The notes under the pieces are model-generated. The model was not told the origin of the DNA, did not search any database, and was given only the letters and a program-made list of their open reading frames with translations. Shown here piece by piece: positions 6 through 47,961 of a stretch of DNA of 64,000 bases (within the stretch, counting starts at the first letter, position 1; every line of letters starts with the position of its first letter). The position numbers and the translations under genes are program-made. Location of the stretch: assembly GCF_053078305.1 (NCBI RefSeq), contig NZ_CP166879.1; one strand, given 5' to 3'.

Positions 6-1604
6 GTGCTGGTAGTGGGACGTATAATTGATCTTGACGGAAAACCTTTCTCCTTTGACCCGGAGATGCAGAGTGCCGCGCTGGATATTCCGCAGATTGC
101 CAGCCGTTATATTGAACATCCGGCCTCGGGTATCACCCCGAACCGGGCGGCGCAGTGCCTTCGCGGGGCTGAACGTGGCGATCTGATTGCCCAGTCCGAT
201 CTGGCCGCTGACATTGAAGAAAAGGATACCCACCTTTTTGCAGAGCTGGGCAAGCGACGTCTTGCCATTCAGGGGGTGCCATGGAGTATTGAGCCGCCAC
301 CGAACGCCAGCGCGAATGAGAAAAAGGACGCGGAAATGCTCGACGAATATCTGCATTCCGCCGACTGGTTTGATGCCATGCTGTTTGATGCCACCGATGC
401 CATCCTGAAGGGCTATTCCTGCATGGAGATTGAGCACGGGATGCTCGGTAAAATGCACATCATCCGCGCCATCCGCTGGCGTGACAGCGGGCATTTCTGC
501 CTTAACCCGGATGATTTGAGCGAACTGCGGCTGCGTGACGGCAGCCATGCCGGGGTGGCGTTTCAGCCCTTTGGCTGGATAGTGCATCAGTCGCGTTCAC
601 GCACTGGCTACGGTGGTGCGACGGGGCTTGTCAGAACGCTTATCTGGCCGTTCATTTTCAAAAACTATTCCGTGCGCGATCTGGCTGAATTTCTGGAGGT
701 GTACGGCCTGCCGATGAAGGTCGGGAAATACCCGTCCGGGGCAACACCGGAGCAGAAAAGCGCCCTGATGCGGGCGGTGATGGATATCGGGCGACGTACA
801 GGCGGGATCATCCCTGCCGGGATGTCGCTGGAGTTTCAGGCAGCCGCGAACGGTCAGGCCGATCCGTTTGAAACCATGATTTCGTGGGGGGAGCGTTCCA
901 TCTCCAAAGCTATCCTCGGCGGCACGCTGACCACGGAAGCCGGAGACAAGGGCGCGCGTTCGCTGGGTGAAGTGCATAACGAGGTGCGCCGGGAAATCAG
1001 GGATTCTGATTTACGTCAGCTGGCCGCCACGCTGAACCGCGATCTGGTGTATCCGCTGTATGCCCTGAACACCGCCCACGCCATTGATATCCGTCGCCTG
1101 CCGCGTATCTGTTTCCAGACCAAAGAGCCGGGGGATATCACCAAAATCACCAGTGCGGTGATGCAGCTCAGTACGGGGATGGATATTCCAGATCCCTGGG
1201 TACGGGAGCAGACCGGTATTCCACAGCCAGCCCCCGGTGAAGCCATCTTCCGTGTCCGGCAGAGCAGTAATGAACCCGCGCAGATCAACAGGGAAACACC
1301 GCCGGAAAAACAGGAAAAGACAGAGCAGACGGCGCTGTCAGCCCGAGTGCCGGAAGCGAAAAGCAGCCCCCGTGATGAACTGGACGACATGGGGGATGCG
1401 GTGCCTGCCCGCCGGTTACAGGAGGCCATCGACCCGCTACTGGAGCCGGTCATTGATGCCATCAGAACGCGGGGGCTGGCGGATGCGCTGGCAGACCTGC
1501 CTGCCCTTTACCGTGAAATGGATGATTCCCGCCTGATGACGCTGCTCAGTGATGCCATGTTTGCTGCGGAAATGAAGGGGATGCTGGATGGCTCAGGGGA
1601 TTGA
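6..1604 (+). CDS. portal protein (Mu gp29/H-like, DUF935 type)
   Basis: 532-aa ORF heading the Mu-like head block. N-terminus (HPASGITP...AADIEEKDTHLF) fits DUF935 portals. The frame is open to the window edge, so the true start may be upstream. Confidence 0.8.
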   Translation: MLVVGRIIDLDGKPFSFDPEMQSAALDIPQIASRYIEHPASGITPNRAAQCLRGAERGDLIAQSDLAADIEEKDTHLFAELGKRRLAIQGVPWSIEPPPNASANEKKDAEMLDEYLHSADWFDAMLFDATDAILKGYSCMEIEHGMLGKMHIIRAIRWRDSGHFCLNPDDLSELRLRDGSHAGVAFQPFGWIVHQSRSRTGYGGATGLVRTLIWPFIFKNYSVRDLAEFLEVYGLPMKVGKYPSGATPEQKSALMRAVMDIGRRTGGIIPAGMSLEFQAAANGQADPFETMISWGERSISKAILGGTLTTEAGDKGARSLGEVHNEVRREIRDSDLRQLAATLNRDLVYPLYALNTAHAIDIRRLPRICFQTKEPGDITKITSAVMQLSTGMDIPDPWVREQTGIPQPAPGEAIFRVRQSSNEPAQINRETPPEKQEKTEQTALSARVPEAKSSPRDELDDMGDAVPARRLQEAIDPLLEPVIDAIRTRGLADALADLPALYREMDDSRLMTLLSDAMFAAEMKGMLDGSGD

Positions 1605-2913
1605 TTTAGGTTATGCCGCCACGCTTCCCTCAAAAGAGGCGGTGGCATACTTCCGCGCCAAAGGGGCGCATATCAGCTGGAACTGGTTCGAAACAGACGC
1701 GGATGTTCATGCCCGTTCATTCACGGCGGCAAAAGTGGCACGCCTGGACGTACTGACCACACTACAGGCGGAAGTGCAGCGTGCTGTTGATGAGGGGATT
1801 TCACAGAAAGCATTTATCCGCACACTGACACCCCGCCTGCAAAAGCTGGGATGGTGGGGAAAGCAGATTGTGGTGGACAGTGCCGGTAACGCGGAAGAAG
1901 TGCAGCTGGGCAGCCCCCGCCGTCTGGCGCTGATTTACAACGTGAACACCCGCGTGGCTTACAATGCCGGGCGTTACACGCAGATGATGAACAACACGGA
2001 CACGCATCCGTTCTGGCAGTATGTAGCGGTGATGGACAGCCGCACCCGCCCGGCGCATTCCGCCCTTAACGGGCTGGTATTCCGCTATGACGATCCGTTC
2101 TGGAATACACACTACCCACCCAATGGCTGGAACTGCCGCTGCCGTGTCCGGCCATTGTCTCAGGCCCGTCTGGATGCAATGGGGTTATCCGTTTCATCCG
2201 GTCAGGATCATCTTTCCACCCGCAATGTTGAGGCTGGCGTGGATAAGCAGACCGGAGAAGTCAGAGAAATGCCGGTGACCACATATTCAGATGGCACCAG
2301 AACCATGACACCGGATGTGGGCTGGTCATATAACCCCGGTTCGGCGGCGTTCGGCACAGACCAGGCGCTGATCCGCAAGCTGATCGAAGTGAAAAGCCCG
2401 GCGTTACGGGAAATGGTGGTTCAGGAGATGAACAACAGCCCGGAGCGGCAGCTGGCGTTCCGCATCTGGGCAAAAAACATCATGAAAACCCGGCGAGGCG
2501 GTAACGATATCCGCACGCTGGGCTTTATGACCGAAAGTATTGCGCAGGCGGTGGAAAGCCGGACGGGAACGCCACCGGCCCGCCTGCTGGCGATGAGCGG
2601 TAAAAATGTGCTCCATGCGGACAGCGTGAAACATCAGAATGACGGTATCGCCCTGACGCCGGAGGATTTCGCGCAGCTTCCCGCCATGCTGGCTTCCCCC
2701 GATGCCGTGCTGTGGGATCATGTCCATCAGAACCTGCTTTACATCACTGAAACCCGTGACGGAACGGCAAAGATTGCCGTCAATGCGCCTTATGGTGTGA
2801 AGCGCCAGCCGGATAAGCTGGATGTGGTAATTAATGCTTACCGGGTAAATAAATTTGATATTGAAAAAGCAATAGAGGGCGGAAAGCTGGAACTACTGGA
2901 AGGTAAATTGTAA
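1588..2913 (+). CDS. MuF-like head morphogenesis protein (gp30 type) with a distinct C-terminal ~125-aa module
   Basis: Core motif PFWQYVAVMDSRTRPAHSALNGLVF...NGWNCRCRVRP is typical of the Mu F / SPP1 gp7 family. It overlaps the portal gene by 17 nt. Confidence 0.85.
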   Translation: MAQGIDLGYAATLPSKEAVAYFRAKGAHISWNWFETDADVHARSFTAAKVARLDVLTTLQAEVQRAVDEGISQKAFIRTLTPRLQKLGWWGKQIVVDSAGNAEEVQLGSPRRLALIYNVNTRVAYNAGRYTQMMNNTDTHPFWQYVAVMDSRTRPAHSALNGLVFRYDDPFWNTHYPPNGWNCRCRVRPLSQARLDAMGLSVSSGQDHLSTRNVEAGVDKQTGEVREMPVTTYSDGTRTMTPDVGWSYNPGSAAFGTDQALIRKLIEVKSPALREMVVQEMNNSPERQLAFRIWAKNIMKTRRGGNDIRTLGFMTESIAQAVESRTGTPPARLLAMSGKNVLHADSVKHQNDGIALTPEDFAQLPAMLASPDAVLWDHVHQNLLYITETRDGTAKIAVNAPYGVKRQPDKLDVVINAYRVNKFDIEKAIEGGKLELLEGKL

Positions 2914-2993
2914 GCCGGTGACGGGGGTCGAACCCGCATAAACATATGACCCCTGAGGGTTTATGCCGCTTTACCAGTTAAGAGTACACCGGC
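2914..2993 (-). other. tRNA-like cloverleaf element (non-canonical; not a confident tRNA gene)
   Basis: On the minus strand: 7-bp acceptor-like stem GCCGGTG/CACCGGC; T-arm GCGGG-TTCGACC-CCCGT; weak D-arm with a GG loop. The middle arm is an extended 5+4-bp stem with a 4-nt loop instead of an anticodon loop. Confidence 0.3.
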
Positions 2994-3031
2994 CTGTATT
3001 TATTTTAATCAGATAGTTTTAAGGAGGCAAC

Positions 3032-3505
3032 ATGTCATCCATCGATGCAGCCGTGGTGGTGGACGTTGCGCGTCTCCAGCGGGTCTTTGCCCGGCTTCAG
3101 TTTGTGGGTGGTGGAAAAGACCTGGCCCGCAGTGTGGCGGCGAGTCTTCTGTCATCGTCAGAAATGGCGTTTGAACAGGAAAAAGAGCCGGACGGCGAAC
3201 GCTGGCATGACTGGTCAGATCCTTACCGCAAGTGGCGTACCCGTAAGGGATACATGCCCGGCAAAATCCTGACGCTGAACGGCGATCTGGCCCGACGCCT
3301 GACCACGGATTATGGCGACACCTGGGCGCTGATTGGATCAAATGAGCCTTATGCGGCCATTCATCAGTGGGGTGGCCTGCCCGGTATGCCACCGGGACCG
3401 GCGGCCATTGGTGCACGTCCGTATATGGGCTTTGATCAGGTGGCAGAGCAGGAGATCATGGACGAAATCAGAAAACGCTTTAAAAAGGCCACAGAAACGC
3501 CTTAA
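3032..3505 (+). CDS. virion morphogenesis protein (Mu G/gp31-like)
   Basis: 157 aa with strong SD (AAGGAGG). Position after MuF and size match Mu G. Confidence 0.7.
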   Translation: MSSIDAAVVVDVARLQRVFARLQFVGGGKDLARSVAASLLSSSEMAFEQEKEPDGERWHDWSDPYRKWRTRKGYMPGKILTLNGDLARRLTTDYGDTWALIGSNEPYAAIHQWGGLPGMPPGPAAIGARPYMGFDQVAEQEIMDEIRKRFKKATETP

Positions 3506-3681
3506 TTGTTTAAGGTATGCAAATGCATTACCTTACCCCCTTCAGGCGCGTGTCGTGATTTTCTAACCTGTATTTAACGGGCTTTAAAATCTGCGTGAAG
3601 CGCCTTTGTATTTTTCCCCTGGAAGCACTTCCTGAAATCCCGCAAAACCCGCCCTGAAAATTCCCGGCTTATGCTGCCGGA

Positions 3682-4806
3682 ATGAAGACGAAAAACACGC
3701 CCAAACTTGCTTATGCCATTCTGAATGCCATCAGCCTGTCCGCAGACGGGGACGGTGACTGGTGTCAGATCATGCCAGCCGGTCGGGTAAAGGCCCGTGA
3801 CGGTCGCCCGGAAAAACCGGCTGAAGGCTGGCTGATTAACCGTGCGACCGTTGAGCGCATGGTATCCCGGGTTGTGGCGCTCAATCAGCCGGTAAAAATT
3901 GACTACAACCACCAGACCCTGATTAAGGGGCATCAGGCACCGGCTGCCGGTTTTGTGATGGCCTCACCGGAGAATTTTCGCTTCAGTGAAGAGCGTGGCT
4001 TCGAGGTGCGCCCGAAGTGGAATCCTCCGGCCCTTGAACATCTGCGTAATAACGAATTCCCCTGGTTTTCACCGGTGATTGGCTATGACGAGAGCACCGG
4101 CGAACCTGTCGAACTTCGGATGCTGGCTATTACCGGTGACCCCGGTCTGACCGGCATGAATCCTGTCGCCGCGCTGTCGGCGGATGACCTTTATAACGCC
4201 TTAAACCCTCCTTTAAAGGATACCTCCATGAATGAGCAATTACGCCAGTTGCTGACGGCGCTCGGTCTGACCGTGGCTGACGGTGACGAATTTACGCCGG
4301 AGCTGGGCACGGCAGCGCTGTCTGCCCTCACCGGGATCAAAACCCGTGCGGATGCACACGACAACCTGAAAACACAGGTTGCCAGCCTGTCGGCAGAGCT
4401 GGAAACCGCAAAAGGCACACCGGCTGGCGGCAGTATTGATCTGACGAAATACGTGCCTGTTGAAACGTATAACGCCCTGCGTACCGAATACGTTGCGCTG
4501 TCGGCGCAGCACGGCAGCACCACGCTGGAGCAGGTGCTGGACAAGGCTGAATCCGAAGGGCGCATCTTCAAAAGCGAACGCGGCTATCTGGAACAACTGG
4601 GCGGGCAGATTGGCGTGGCGGCACTTTCTGCACAGCTTGACGCCCGCCAGCCGGTTGCGGCCCTGACCGGCCTTCAGACCGACACCGTGACCGTGCCGGA
4701 TAAAAAGACTGCCACCGCTGTGCTGTCGGCTGAAGATATCGCGGCCGCCAAACTGCTGGGTAAAACCGAAGCCGAGTTCCTGAAAATGAAAGAGGAAATG
4801 CAATAA
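3682..4806 (+). CDS. head maturation protease/scaffold (Mu I/gp32-like)
   Basis: 374 aa. N-terminal Mu-like prophage I protein pattern, with an Ala/Leu/Glu-rich coiled C-terminal half (scaffold-like). Lies immediately upstream of the major head gene. Confidence 0.8.
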   Translation: MKTKNTPKLAYAILNAISLSADGDGDWCQIMPAGRVKARDGRPEKPAEGWLINRATVERMVSRVVALNQPVKIDYNHQTLIKGHQAPAAGFVMASPENFRFSEERGFEVRPKWNPPALEHLRNNEFPWFSPVIGYDESTGEPVELRMLAITGDPGLTGMNPVAALSADDLYNALNPPLKDTSMNEQLRQLLTALGLTVADGDEFTPELGTAALSALTGIKTRADAHDNLKTQVASLSAELETAKGTPAGGSIDLTKYVPVETYNALRTEYVALSAQHGSTTLEQVLDKAESEGRIFKSERGYLEQLGGQIGVAALSAQLDARQPVAALTGLQTDTVTVPDKKTATAVLSAEDIAAAKLLGKTEAEFLKMKEEMQ

Positions 4807-5753
4807 TGCCTACCCCGATTACACCGGCGATGATCACCGCCCTGATGACGGGCTACCGTTCTGATTTTCAGGCCGGGATGTCCATGGCCCCGTCGCAGTA
4901 CAAAAAAATTGCGATGACCGTGCCCTCCACATCGAAATCCAACACCTACGGCTGGCTGGGGCATGCGCCTCATTTTCGTGAGTGGATTGGTTCTCGTGTG
5001 ATCCAGAAAATGAAAGCGCACGGTTATTCCATTGTAAACAAGACCTGGGAAGATACCGTCCCTGTTAATCGTGATGATTTTGAGGACGATAATCTCGGTA
5101 TTTACTCGCCTTTATTTCAGGAGCTTGGTCGTGCCGCTGCTGTTCAGCCGGATGAGCTTGTATTTGCTGCTCTGCGTGATGGTCTGAAAAGTGCGTGTTA
5201 CGACGGTCAGAACTTCTTTGATACCGAACACCCCGTCTACCCAAATGTGGATGGTACCGGTGATGTGGCGCTGGTCAGCAACATGTTTGTGGCAAAAACC
5301 GGCTCTGTCGGTGCACAGGCAGATTACAGCGGACCGGCCTGGTATCTGCTCGACTGCTCCCGTGCAATAAAACCCATCATCTATCAGAGCCGCCGCAAGG
5401 TTGAACTGGTTGCACAGACAAAAATTGATGAAGGTCGCGCATTCACTGATAACGAGTTTGTGTTCGGTGCATCCGTTCGTCACAACGTGGGCTACGGCTT
5501 CTGGCAGATGGCCTACATGATGCAGTCACCGCTGACGCTGGATGCGCTGTGGCATGGCTGGTCCGCCATGCGTGAGTTTACCGCTGACGGTGGCCGCAAA
5601 CTCGGCATCAAACCCACCCATATTGTTGTCCCCACCTCGCTGGAAAAACAGGCGGTGCAGCTGCTGGAGCGTGAACTGTTCGCAGACGGAAACGCAACCG
5701 TCTCTAACGAGATGAAGGGCAAGCTGGAGCTGGTTGTCGCGGATTATCTGTAA
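4806..5753 (+). CDS. major head subunit (Mu T/gp34-like)
   Basis: 315 aa. ATG overlaps the upstream stop (TAATG). Followed by a GC hairpin at 5760-5785. Position and size match Mu T. Confidence 0.8.
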   Translation: MPTPITPAMITALMTGYRSDFQAGMSMAPSQYKKIAMTVPSTSKSNTYGWLGHAPHFREWIGSRVIQKMKAHGYSIVNKTWEDTVPVNRDDFEDDNLGIYSPLFQELGRAAAVQPDELVFAALRDGLKSACYDGQNFFDTEHPVYPNVDGTGDVALVSNMFVAKTGSVGAQADYSGPAWYLLDCSRAIKPIIYQSRRKVELVAQTKIDEGRAFTDNEFVFGASVRHNVGYGFWQMAYMMQSPLTLDALWHGWSAMREFTADGGRKLGIKPTHIVVPTSLEKQAVQLLERELFADGNATVSNEMKGKLELVVADYL

Positions 5754-35077: not shown

Positions 35078-35275
35078 ACATCGCGCCCCGGGATTGCCGG
35101 AAGGAGACAAAAACCGTACAGTATGCGCGGGTGCCTTTGGCTGATGGCCGGAGGGAACACCTGAAGGCCGGAAAGACGAAGGCCCCGGACAAACATTCAT
35201 GTTTAACCCGAGGCCTGACTTTCGATCTTCAGCAAATTGAAGGTTAGCGCCTCTCCGTAAAAGGAGCAAGCGTTT

Positions 35276-35416
35276 ATGTCGCAAAAACCGTTAAAAACCA
35301 CCGTGATTTGTACCACGGTAGTGCTCATTATCTGGATCACCCACACTTCACTGTGCGAGTTCCGGTTCCGGATAGCGGGCGCGGAGATTGCGGCGTTCTT
35401 ACAGTGTAAGCAGTAA
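35276..35416 (+). CDS. Hok/Gef-family type I toxin peptide (46 aa; below ORF-track cutoff)
   Basis: ATG at 35276 after AAGGAG. MSQKPLKTTVICTTVVLIIWITHTSLCEFRFRIAGAEIAAFLQCKQ has a TM helix, then the LCE(F/I/V)R...E(I/V)AAF signature of Hok/Gef/RelF peptides. Confidence 0.7.
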   Translation: MSQKPLKTTVICTTVVLIIWITHTSLCEFRFRIAGAEIAAFLQCKQ

Positions 35417-47655: not shown

Positions 47656-47689
47656 ACATTCATTGAGAAAACTGATGCTACTGTGTCAA

Positions 47690-47790
47690 CGATCCGTTAT
47701 CAGTGCAGGAAAATGCCTGTTAGCGTAAAAGCAAAACACAAATCTATCCATGCAAGCATTCACCGCCGGTTTACTGGCGGTTTTTTTTTT
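47690..47790 (+). ncRNA. mgrR: MgrR sRNA (PhoP-activated, Hfq-dependent); 5' end approximate
   Basis: Location between dgcZ and mgtS as in K-12. Upstream PhoP box. Terminator stem 47763-47780 followed by T10 (47781-47790). Confidence 0.55.
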
Positions 47791-47865
47791 CGCCGTCATA
47801 AAAATCAGGCCCCTTGTACACAACTGTAACAAGGGGCCGGTTAGGTGAGGGATTATCTCCGTTCA

Positions 47866-47961
47866 TTAGTCATCCCATTTGTGGCTGAAATACGCGGCCA
47901 GAAAACCAGAAAATAAAATTATTCCCAGTACGGCCATAAAAACATTCATATTACCCAGCAT
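47866..47961 (-). CDS. mgtS: 31-aa membrane peptide MgtS (YneM), below ORF-track cutoff
   Basis: Minus-strand translation MLGNMNVFMAVLGIILFSGFLAAYFSHKWDD is identical to MgtS as recalled. SD GGAGG lies upstream. Confidence 0.9.
   Translation of the reverse strand: MLGNMNVFMAVLGIILFSGFLAAYFSHKWDD

Follow-up and report, generated by a model that had tools for sequence, protein, structure and literature searches.

The window analysed here, a stretch of 64,000 nucleotides (nt) from contig NZ_CP166879.1 (NCBI RefSeq assembly GCF_053078305.1), includes the late region of a Mu-like prophage, of the type represented by Sp18 in E. coli O157 Sakai. Between the stop codon of the head gene F (MuF) and the start of gene G lies a gap of 118 nt, which contains an 80-nt unit that takes the shape of a tRNA when it is read on the minus strand, that is, against the late genes. 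Comparison with its relatives leads us to conclude with high confidence that this unit is a real, selected gene for a tRNA-shaped RNA, the decisive evidence being the covariation of its stems. The genes of the locus and the parts of the unit are as follows.

6-1604: portal gene
1588-2913, plus strand: MuF, with the domains Phage_Mu_F and MuF_C, upstream neighbour of the tRNA-like unit
2911-2913, plus strand: MuF stop codon TAA, whose complement supplies positions 73-75 of the RNA trailer
2993 to 2914, minus strand: the tRNA-like unit, 80 nt (31.4 bits with the Rfam tRNA model, 64.2 bits with our own model R1)
2912-2995, minus strand: predicted whole RNA, made of the unit and two end pairs (A2995-U2912 and G2994.U2913) that give a terminal helix of 9 base pairs (bp)
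2987-2993, minus strand: 5′ strand of the acceptor-type stem, GCCGGUG, partner of 2914-2920
2968-2986, minus strand: U8, A9, an extra C and the D arm UCUU/AACUGGUA/AAGC with A14, A15, G18, G19 and A21, letters invariant in the alignment
2983-2980 and 2971-2968, minus strand: D stem UCUU/AAGC with the 8-nt loop AACUGGUA, a register backed by the family
2942-2966, minus strand: central arm, with the helix GCAUA/UAUGU, internal loop A/CA, helix ACCC/GGGU and tetraloop UCAG (allele A, class 1)
2938-2941, minus strand: variable loop UUAU, 4 nt, alignment columns 43-46, in which U48 partners A15
2921-2937, minus strand: T arm GCGGG-UUCGACC-CCCGU, with a canonical T loop
2914-2920, minus strand: 3′ strand of the acceptor-type stem, CACCGGC, partner of 2987-2993
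3032-3505, plus strand: gene G (virion morphogenesis, Phage_tail_S), downstream neighbour, on the strand opposite to the unit
3682-4806: gene I
4806-5753: gene T

Read from 2993 to 2914, the unit runs GCCGGUG UA C UCUU AACUGGUA AAGC G GCAUA A ACCC UCAG GGGU CA UAUGU UUAU GCGGG UUCGACC CCCGU CACCGGC; its copy in O157 Sakai lies at NC_002695.2 5058641-5058720. No CCA is encoded, and positions 73-75 are UUA, the complement of the MuF stop codon. An earlier sequence-only reading had described a cloverleaf at these coordinates, starting right after the MuF stop, with an acceptor stem, a T arm and a central arm and without CCA, and all of this is confirmed on the minus strand. The D arm that it had drawn is also present, but its register, CTCT/AAAG, was one base off. 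The family supports UCUU/AAGC, and the corrected register reads GCUU/AAGU and GCUC/GAGU in other alleles, a compensatory change among them.

The Rfam tRNA model, RF00005, gave the unit a score of 31.4 bits (E = 1e-4) in a search of 501 nt, passing the gathering threshold of 29, with 15 nt standing in the alignment where the 7-nt anticodon loop belongs. Relatives of the unit scored 34.2, 31.2 and 26.9 bits, and units from the P4-like island described below scored 35.0 and 33.9 bits. The unit was absent from the list obtained in a gathering-level Rfam scan of the whole window with fast filters, and ARAGORN returned no tRNA gene and no tmRNA in the window or in loci L001-L004. The check with tRNA finders and models that the sequence-only reading had proposed is hence divided, ARAGORN being negative and the tRNA model positive. 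In other E. coli genomes the Prokaryotic Genome Annotation Pipeline (PGAP) places the label ‘tRNA-OTHER’, that is, a tRNA without isotype, at the same spot. Our covariance model R1 found a single copy in the window. Folding energy alone singles out neither the region nor the strand: the minus strand is unremarkable (z = -1.4), and the plus strand folds at -30.1 kcal/mol (z = -3.0).

The family was collected in three ways: 5,426 complete E. coli genomes were searched with blastn, viral, metagenome and species-representative collections were scanned with patterns, and further loci were sought by synteny. The allele of the window is present in 77 of the 5,426 genomes, and related units in 229 (~4%), many of which are Shiga-toxin-producing strains. 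Among the species-representative genomes a strict pattern had no match, and a looser one matched only Citrobacter braakii and Edwardsiella anguillarum. In total 89 units were collected, with 23 distinct sequences, from a sample that is mostly E. coli and two phage lineages.

Covariation was assessed in an alignment of 22 distinct scaffolds, with the variable arm cut out, by counting the named pairs. In these sequences 96.8% of the cells of the acceptor stem are paired, and four of its seven pairs have changed on both sides. The T stem is paired in 100% of cells, with two pairs changed on both sides, and the D stem in 84%, with a U-A to C-G swap among the changes. Taken together, the acceptor, D and T stems contain 12 pairs changed on both sides. 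The covariation score was reached by none of 500 shuffles, and pairing fell to 35-55% in controls with slid partners. Furthermore, U8, A9, A14, A15, G18, G19, A21, U48, U54, U55, C56 and A58 are invariant in the 22 aligned sequences, and these columns satisfy all of the elbow contacts U8-A14, R15-Y48, G18-U55, G19-C56 and U54-A58. A15-U48 and A9-A23-U12 are standard isosteric choices in tRNA. Both the conservation and the covariation in related Mu-like prophages for which the sequence-only reading had advised looking are therefore there.

The functional strand is the minus strand. Indeed, the core helices of the family contain 24 G-U cells that become A-C mismatches if they are read on the plus strand, so that the argument that had been drawn from the G-U pairs of this single copy holds family-wide. 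Moreover, the island units lie on the sense strand after a Mor gene, and the tRNA-like sense is the only strand sense common to both settings. These observations also bear on the possibility that the unit acts in cis, either as a processing or stability site in the plus-strand F-G messenger or as a DNA linker promoting recombination at a mosaic joint. The plus strand folds well, as said, and the unit sits exactly at a mosaic boundary, with G 97% identical and the F tail ~72%. However, the 24 G-U cells would be mismatches in such a messenger, the invariant letters of the T and D loops are meaningful only when read on the minus strand, and transcription in the island runs in the tRNA-like sense of its units. 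Compensatory changes, in turn, indicate RNA pairing rather than DNA identity, and phage Mu manages without the unit. We therefore hold a role in cis to be very unlikely.

Mapping by tblastn showed the units in only two genomic contexts. In the first, found in Sp18-type Mu-like phages from E. coli, Citrobacter and Edwardsiella (including prophages of Citrobacter braakii and Edwardsiella anguillarum), they directly follow the MuF stop, ahead of the G ribosome site, and run against the late genes; MuF of these phages is 100% down to 34% identical to that of the window. In the second they form tandem arrays of 2-3 units behind a Mor-family gene, on the same strand, in a P4-like island. F and G overlap by four bases in phage Mu, with no unit between them, and F abuts G in the relative L063 (70% MuF identity), where the unit is absent as well; a protein search found G homologues in phages Mu, D108 and SfMu. 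Because Mu and L063 have F and G without a unit and other F-G loci have one, we read it as an optional inserted gene, a moron-like cassette between F and G. The suggestion that it might be just a structured spacer is at odds with the same two loci, in which F and G meet without any spacer.

Two contigs, one environmental and one from a metagenome, carry a diverged and a weaker unit, respectively. On a short contig (L073) a second, more diverged unit lies at 118-199 on the minus strand, ~550 nt from the first; it scores 32.5 bits with R1 and has a long terminal helix and a tetraloop-capped central arm. A weaker unit (L085 638-720, 35.5 bits), with a mismatched T stem, lies on one half of a 1.3-kb metagenome contig; the rest of this contig, GC-rich and prepilin-like, seems unrelated, which may reflect a chimeric assembly, or the unit may be a decayed copy.

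That the unit is a decaying tRNA pseudogene, an attachment-site leftover or a functionless chance cloverleaf seems to us extremely unlikely. Such readings could account for the silence of ARAGORN, for the inability of PGAP to give an isotype and for the T-loop change A58C of some copies, but they are opposed by covariation together with strong purifying selection, by a position that is fixed in phages with MuF as low as 34% identical, by a conserved promoter-like site and by the location of the unit inside elements rather than at their ends. A decayed tRNA, one of the options of the sequence-only reading, would not be expected to have stems that covary, tertiary-contact letters that are invariant and alleles that are 96-97% conserved next to flanks of ~70%. 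Nor does a remnant of an integrase target, another of its options, agree with a full-length unit in the middle of a late operon or, in the island, ~230 nt in from the right end. Phages of the Mu family insert by transposition, and no integrase gene was seen in the stretches that we examined. The attachment-site idea was likewise discarded for the island, whose right end has its own repeat, AAAAAGGCATAC, with the unit internal and the integrase at the other end. A parent tRNA was also sought: the phage genomes searched with blastn contained only weak similarities, confined to the T arm (E >= 0.3), with tRNA-Cys of actinophage and Caulobacter phage origin, and no real E. coli tRNA gene cross-matched in blastn against the complete E. 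coli genomes.

A consensus scan of the minus strand returned one sigma-70-like site, TTGCCT-17-TAAAAT, as the candidate promoter of the unit.

3002-3007, minus strand: -10 hexamer TAAAAT
3025-3030, minus strand: -35-like hexamer TTGCCT, 17 nt upstream of the -10, complement of the AGGCAA between the G ribosome site and its ATG

The -10 box is kept, as TAAAAT, TACAAT or TATACT, in all phage-context copies except the Edwardsiella type, with a spacer that is only ~60% identical between lineages. Since the unit-less relative also has the TTGCCT hexamer, this hexamer is older than the insertion, and the inserted cassette would comprise the -10 box, the unit and what lies between them. The spacing between the -10 and base 1 of the unit follows the extension of the end helix: distances of 8, 9, 10 and 14 nt go with extensions of 2, 4, 4 and 7 bp, respectively. 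As a consequence, the predicted start (the 7th base after the -10) is always at most 1 nt from the first paired base, which points to a leaderless primary transcript with its 5′ end flush in the helix. The trailer of the RNA is antisense to the MuF tail, and the 3′ end is presumably made by trimming. A 35-codon frame that starts in the unit (2945-2838) was considered and set aside, as it is not kept in other alleles.

The unit departs from canonical tRNA in its central arm. Minimum-energy folding of 20 different arms gave in every case a single long, irregular hairpin with some 7-11 bp, and three classes of arm can be told apart.

Class 1 (the window): GGCAUA-A-ACCC-(tetraloop)-GGGU-CA-UAUGUU
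Class 2: GGCA-CC...(loop of 6-14 nt)...GG-A-UGUU
Class 3: CGGUGCC...(tetraloop)...GAUCAUG

In most arms the 3′ strand has 1-2 unpaired bases, as a rule with an A among them, a few pairs up from the foot of the helix, and these predict a kink in the modelled arm. The tetraloops are mostly of the UNCG type (UCCG, UUCG), that of the window being UCAG. Predicted arm loops measure 4-6 or 9-18 nt in all alleles except one, the Edwardsiella allele, which also permits an 8-bp stem with the 7-nt loop UUAGUCA but has C at position 37.

The ends of the molecule depart from tRNA as well. Pair -1/73 is formed in 20 of 22 sequences (GC 11, UA 4, GU 3, AU 2), and so is pair -2/74 (AU 10, CG 6, UG 4). The end helix exceeds the usual 7 bp by 2-7 bp and reaches 11-14 bp in some alleles. 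None of the 23 distinct sequences encodes CCA, there is one extra C between positions 9 and 10, and pair 3:70 is C-G, U-A, A-U or U-G, never G3-U70. With a closed central arm, paired positions 73 and 74 and no encoded CCA, an RNA of this sequence would be unable to decode and, as transcribed, would be without a free acceptor end.

We considered nevertheless a true tRNA-type molecule, cut by RNase P, trimmed, supplied with CCA and charged by an anticodon-blind synthetase, which would then serve outside decoding or tie up the synthetase. G-1:C73, the main histidine identity mark in E. coli, occurs in half of the distinct sequences, but the discriminator varies (U, C, A) as does position -1 (G, A, U), and neither a common identity set nor G3-U70 nor a long variable arm is found. 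The acceptor of 7 bp and the complete elbow are canonical; however, 73 and 74 are base-paired in 20 of 22 sequences, which leaves no free NCCA stalk at the 3′ end, and CCA is encoded in none. A 7-bp acceptor is a major determinant for RNase P, and the YrlA RNA of M. smegmatis is indeed cleaved and receives CCA (PMC4201824). For the unit, on the other hand, the predicted start at the first paired base suggests that the extra pairs belong to the final molecule. On balance a chargeable molecule appears decidedly improbable.

The arm exists as discrete, non-homologous alleles, each of which is 96-97% identical across lineages whose F and G flanks are 68-74% identical. For allele A (window versus L057) the unit is 96% identical, the last 300 nt of F 73% and the first 300 nt of G 69%; for allele C (L005 versus L058) the values are 96%, 70% and 71%. 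Conversely, different alleles inside one lineage have units that are only 73-75% identical (75% for the window versus L005, with G 97% identical). The F tail beside the unit has synonymous changes in 19 of 45 codons for allele C, and the 17-codon MuF peptide specific to allele A has six silent changes. Since the F tail has accumulated so many synonymous changes while the unit stayed constant, the sequences argue for strong purifying selection on the unit, arm included, and for an old linkage between allele and tail. Inside an allele the letters of the tetraloop vary (UCAG, UCAA, UCCG, UUCG), and stems and bulges are kept.

The tail of MuF itself, its last ~25-100 residues, is hypervariable (window 2610-2913; L002, L005, L055, L057 and L058), whereas the MuF body of E. 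coli-lineage phages is 98-99% identical even where their alleles differ. In two phage lineages the tail type, at least over the last ~25 residues, goes together with the RNA allele, and it is kept by purifying selection, only silent changes being seen within a type. This co-segregation may be plain linkage, since alleles E and F share a MuF tail yet differ in the loop; a functional coupling of tail and allele is the possible alternative. We also considered a MuF toxin with RNA immunity and rejected it, as Phage_Mu_F and MuF_C are the only domains of MuF and units occur in the island in the absence of MuF.

The T-loop change A58C (UUCGCCC) is seen in phage copies of allele C (L042, L044, L049, L052-L054) and in one island unit (L082 2204-2294, the last of its array). 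All of these carriers, phage and island, have the type II scaffold in common; phage and island may have exchanged the change, or it may be a variant that is tolerated or on its way to decay.

The second context of the units is an island of ~8.4 kb, located at L032 16440-24870 in E. coli STEC17-183 (NZ_CP075652.1), where it is inserted in mdtP; a second location, in L003, adjoins dinD. It encodes a P4-type integrase, AlpA, isrK, two C4 RNA genes before Icd-like genes (77.8 and 72.3 bits with Rfam in L032), an AAA_25 helicase, SSB, PerC and a Mor/C-family activator. The tRNA-like array follows this activator at the end of the island opposite to the integrase, with units ~24 nt apart. It stops ~230 nt short of the right end, where the repeat AAAAAGGCATAC marks the boundary. 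All three arm classes are represented in the island, by one unit each. Its activator is 44-47% identical to the gene preceding lys in Sp18-type phages, and one strain, JNEC-KY203, has both an island array and a Mu-like F-G unit. This resemblance and this co-occurrence suggest that the island could be a satellite using Mu-like helpers. A search of viral contigs with the Mor protein of the island yielded nothing useful.

Between the Mor stop and the first unit (L032 24188-24290) there are GTGAAA-type repeats (GGTGAAAGAA twice, GTGAAAT four times) and a perfect dyad, TCTGGT-gct-ACCAGA, which could be iterons or an activator site. No motif common to this upstream region and the late-promoter regions of the phages was found. 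PGAP labels the last island unit (L004 3778-3859, L032 24558-24639) ‘tRNA-Tyr’, a place where ARAGORN is silent. The GUA behind this label sits in a palindromic hairpin, CAGCCU-GUAC-AGGCUG, on the extended arm and not in a 7-nt anticodon loop, and the label is therefore probably a mis-annotation.

The island and the alleles together invite comparison with a regulatory antisense RNA in the manner of C4 (P1/P7) or CI (P4), in which the arm would pair with a target and set the immunity type and the tRNA body would serve processing and stability only. Discrete, non-homologous arm alleles that are conserved in type and shuffled among lineages are the pattern expected of specificity determinants, and the island holds one unit of each of the three classes. 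Yet the commonest alleles, A and C, end in 4-nt UNCG-type loops unable to pair, and loop letters change freely while stems and bulges stay. Class 2 loops, with 6-14 nt, speak in its favour; the best exact complements of the arms (8-11 nt), searched as exact matches in the window and the loci, do not exceed in length those of shuffled arms. With its genuine C4 and isrK RNAs the island is familiar ground for RNA-based control, but the Rfam C4 model that finds these C4 genes has no match at E <= 10 in positions 2700-3200 of the window. An antisense role hence appears quite unlikely.

Elsewhere in the locus, the G-I gap (3506-3681) measures 176 nt, and the corresponding gap of phage Mu is annotated with a gyrase cut site. 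Gathering-level Rfam matches in the rest of the window, unrelated to the unit, are STnc560 at 47657-47872 (276 bits) and the sok antitoxin RNA at 35129-35287 (63.5 bits).

How does this RNA relate to known families? With canonical tRNA (RF00005) it shares a 7-bp acceptor, a D arm, a 4-nt variable loop, a T arm and all elbow letters, and with phage tRNA genes and clusters it shares being phage-borne and, in the island, arrayed in tandem. In contrast to tRNA, it replaces the 5-bp stem and 7-nt anticodon loop by a kinked hairpin of 8-11 bp, often with a tetraloop, and it has an extra base at 9/10, positions 73 and 74 paired with -1 and -2, no encoded CCA and no isotype.

The tRNA-like domain of tmRNA is, like the unit, an anticodon-less mimic with a canonical T arm. 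In tmRNA the D arm is reduced, G3-U70 directs charging with alanine, a messenger part is present and SmpB is required; the unit has none of these traits, and the ARAGORN search for tmRNA was negative. C4 and CI RNAs are small stable RNAs of phages or satellites, and genuine C4 genes lie in the same island as the units. Their acceptor-like end helix is recognised by RNase P and their type-specific variable parts define immunity, but a D/T elbow is absent from them, and the loops through which they act are complementary to known targets. The unit, unlike them, has no match to the C4 model (RF01695) and no complementary target among exact matches.

YrlA resembles the unit as a tRNA mimic with conserved D and T arms and no decoding role shown. 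Its topology is the reverse: the 5′ and 3′ ends of YrlA lie on the side of the anticodon arm and its acceptor-like stem is closed, whereas those of the unit form an acceptor-type helix. The neighbours differ too, being MuF and G for the unit, and Rfam reported no Y RNA family in the unit region. YrlA is the tRNA-like domain of bacterial and phage Y RNAs (PMC4201824; bioRxiv 10.1101/312249). It adjoins the gene for Ro60 (rsr), has a Ro-binding module besides the tRNA-like domain, and is modified by DusA and TruB without an established role in translation (PMC4201824). In S. Typhimurium no cleavage at its acceptor-like stem was detectable, and charging is not thought to be general (PMC4201824). 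By analogy, we take YrlA as the nearest precedent for a mimic mechanism.

Since the unit lacks defining features of each of these families, we class it as a tRNA mimic, or tRNA-like non-coding RNA, that stands outside the tRNA, C4/CI, YrlA and tmRNA families. To our knowledge non-decoding tRNA look-alikes are rare in bacteria, with tmRNA and YrlA as the main cases, and none is known as a stand-alone accessory gene of a phage. Full-text searches of the literature found no description of this RNA, and the one prophage small-RNA preprint with the term ‘tRNA-like’ is about lambdoid Pas small RNAs. The existing record of the family consists of automatic labels only, ‘tRNA-OTHER’ or, for one island unit, ‘tRNA-Tyr’.

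The closest design is man-made. The engineered ‘tRNA scaffold’ is identical in layout: an arbitrary hairpin takes the place of the anticodon stem-loop, the acceptor, T and D arms remain, and E. coli processes such a molecule as it does a tRNA and does not degrade it (PMC3753655). The scaffold differs from the unit in being matured to a normal CCA end and in having no biological role of its own (PMC3753655).

Of the options listed by the sequence-only reading, the tRNA mimic is the one that accords with a selected, tRNA-shaped RNA of the minus strand that has no usable anticodon loop. In the explanation that we favour, to which we give about even chances as a whole, the unit would be an independently transcribed optional gene for a stable, non-decoding, tRNA-shaped RNA that acts in trans as a mimic and is probably not chargeable. 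The gene would have been inserted as a moron cassette between the head genes F and G of Sp18-type Mu-like phages. A constitutive sigma-70 promoter would start the RNA at its first paired base, leaving no 5′ leader to remove, and the 3′ end would be trimmed back to the helix, so that both ends would be flush and paired. The tRNA body would confer a long life, by analogy with the engineered scaffold, and the RNA would never enter translation. Because the gene points against the late operon, expression would be most likely in the lysogen or early in infection, while the converging late operon is silent. The weakest step is that this look-alike would bind, in trans, a protein whose usual ligand is the tRNA body, and that the kinked arm would be the part that varies and is specific to the allele; we put forward this protein-ligand mechanism tentatively.

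Several points weigh against the explanation as a whole. The transcript is a prediction, as are its ends and its abundance; the promoter match alone is not above chance (one site found, 0.6 expected), and a search for a minus-strand terminator found none. The arm alleles could have arisen independently as neutral ways of making a stable hairpin, against which the conserved bulges speak, and some copies carry the A58C variant in the T loop. Finally, a 7-bp acceptor makes a good substrate for RNase P (PMC4201824), so that the RNA might mature as a tRNA does and receive CCA, in which case the model would change.

A more far-reaching reading, which we regard as doubtful, is that the units form an RNA-based recognition system common to Mu-like helper phages and P4-like satellites. 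The tRNA body may then provide a handle that is the same in all units, and the kinked arm may be a ‘key’ with three classes, each phage holding one key; a satellite that holds every class may match, hijack or block any helper. In the other branch of this reading, phage and satellite may both disarm a host factor that reads the tRNA shape.

In practical terms, annotation pipelines label these units ‘tRNA-OTHER’ or, in the case of one island unit, wrongly ‘tRNA-Tyr’. The family is well defined, strongly selected and polymorphic in a way that suggests specificity types, and it links Mu-like phages to a small island that resembles an undescribed kind of satellite for them. If the RNA does bind a tRNA-recognising enzyme or defence protein, an RNA decoy would join the counters of phages to tRNA-directed immunity, and the tRNA scaffold of RNA engineering would have a natural precedent. 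A recognition system of the kind outlined above, if true, would be a new allele-specific, protein-free determinant in the conflict between phages and satellites or between phages and defence.

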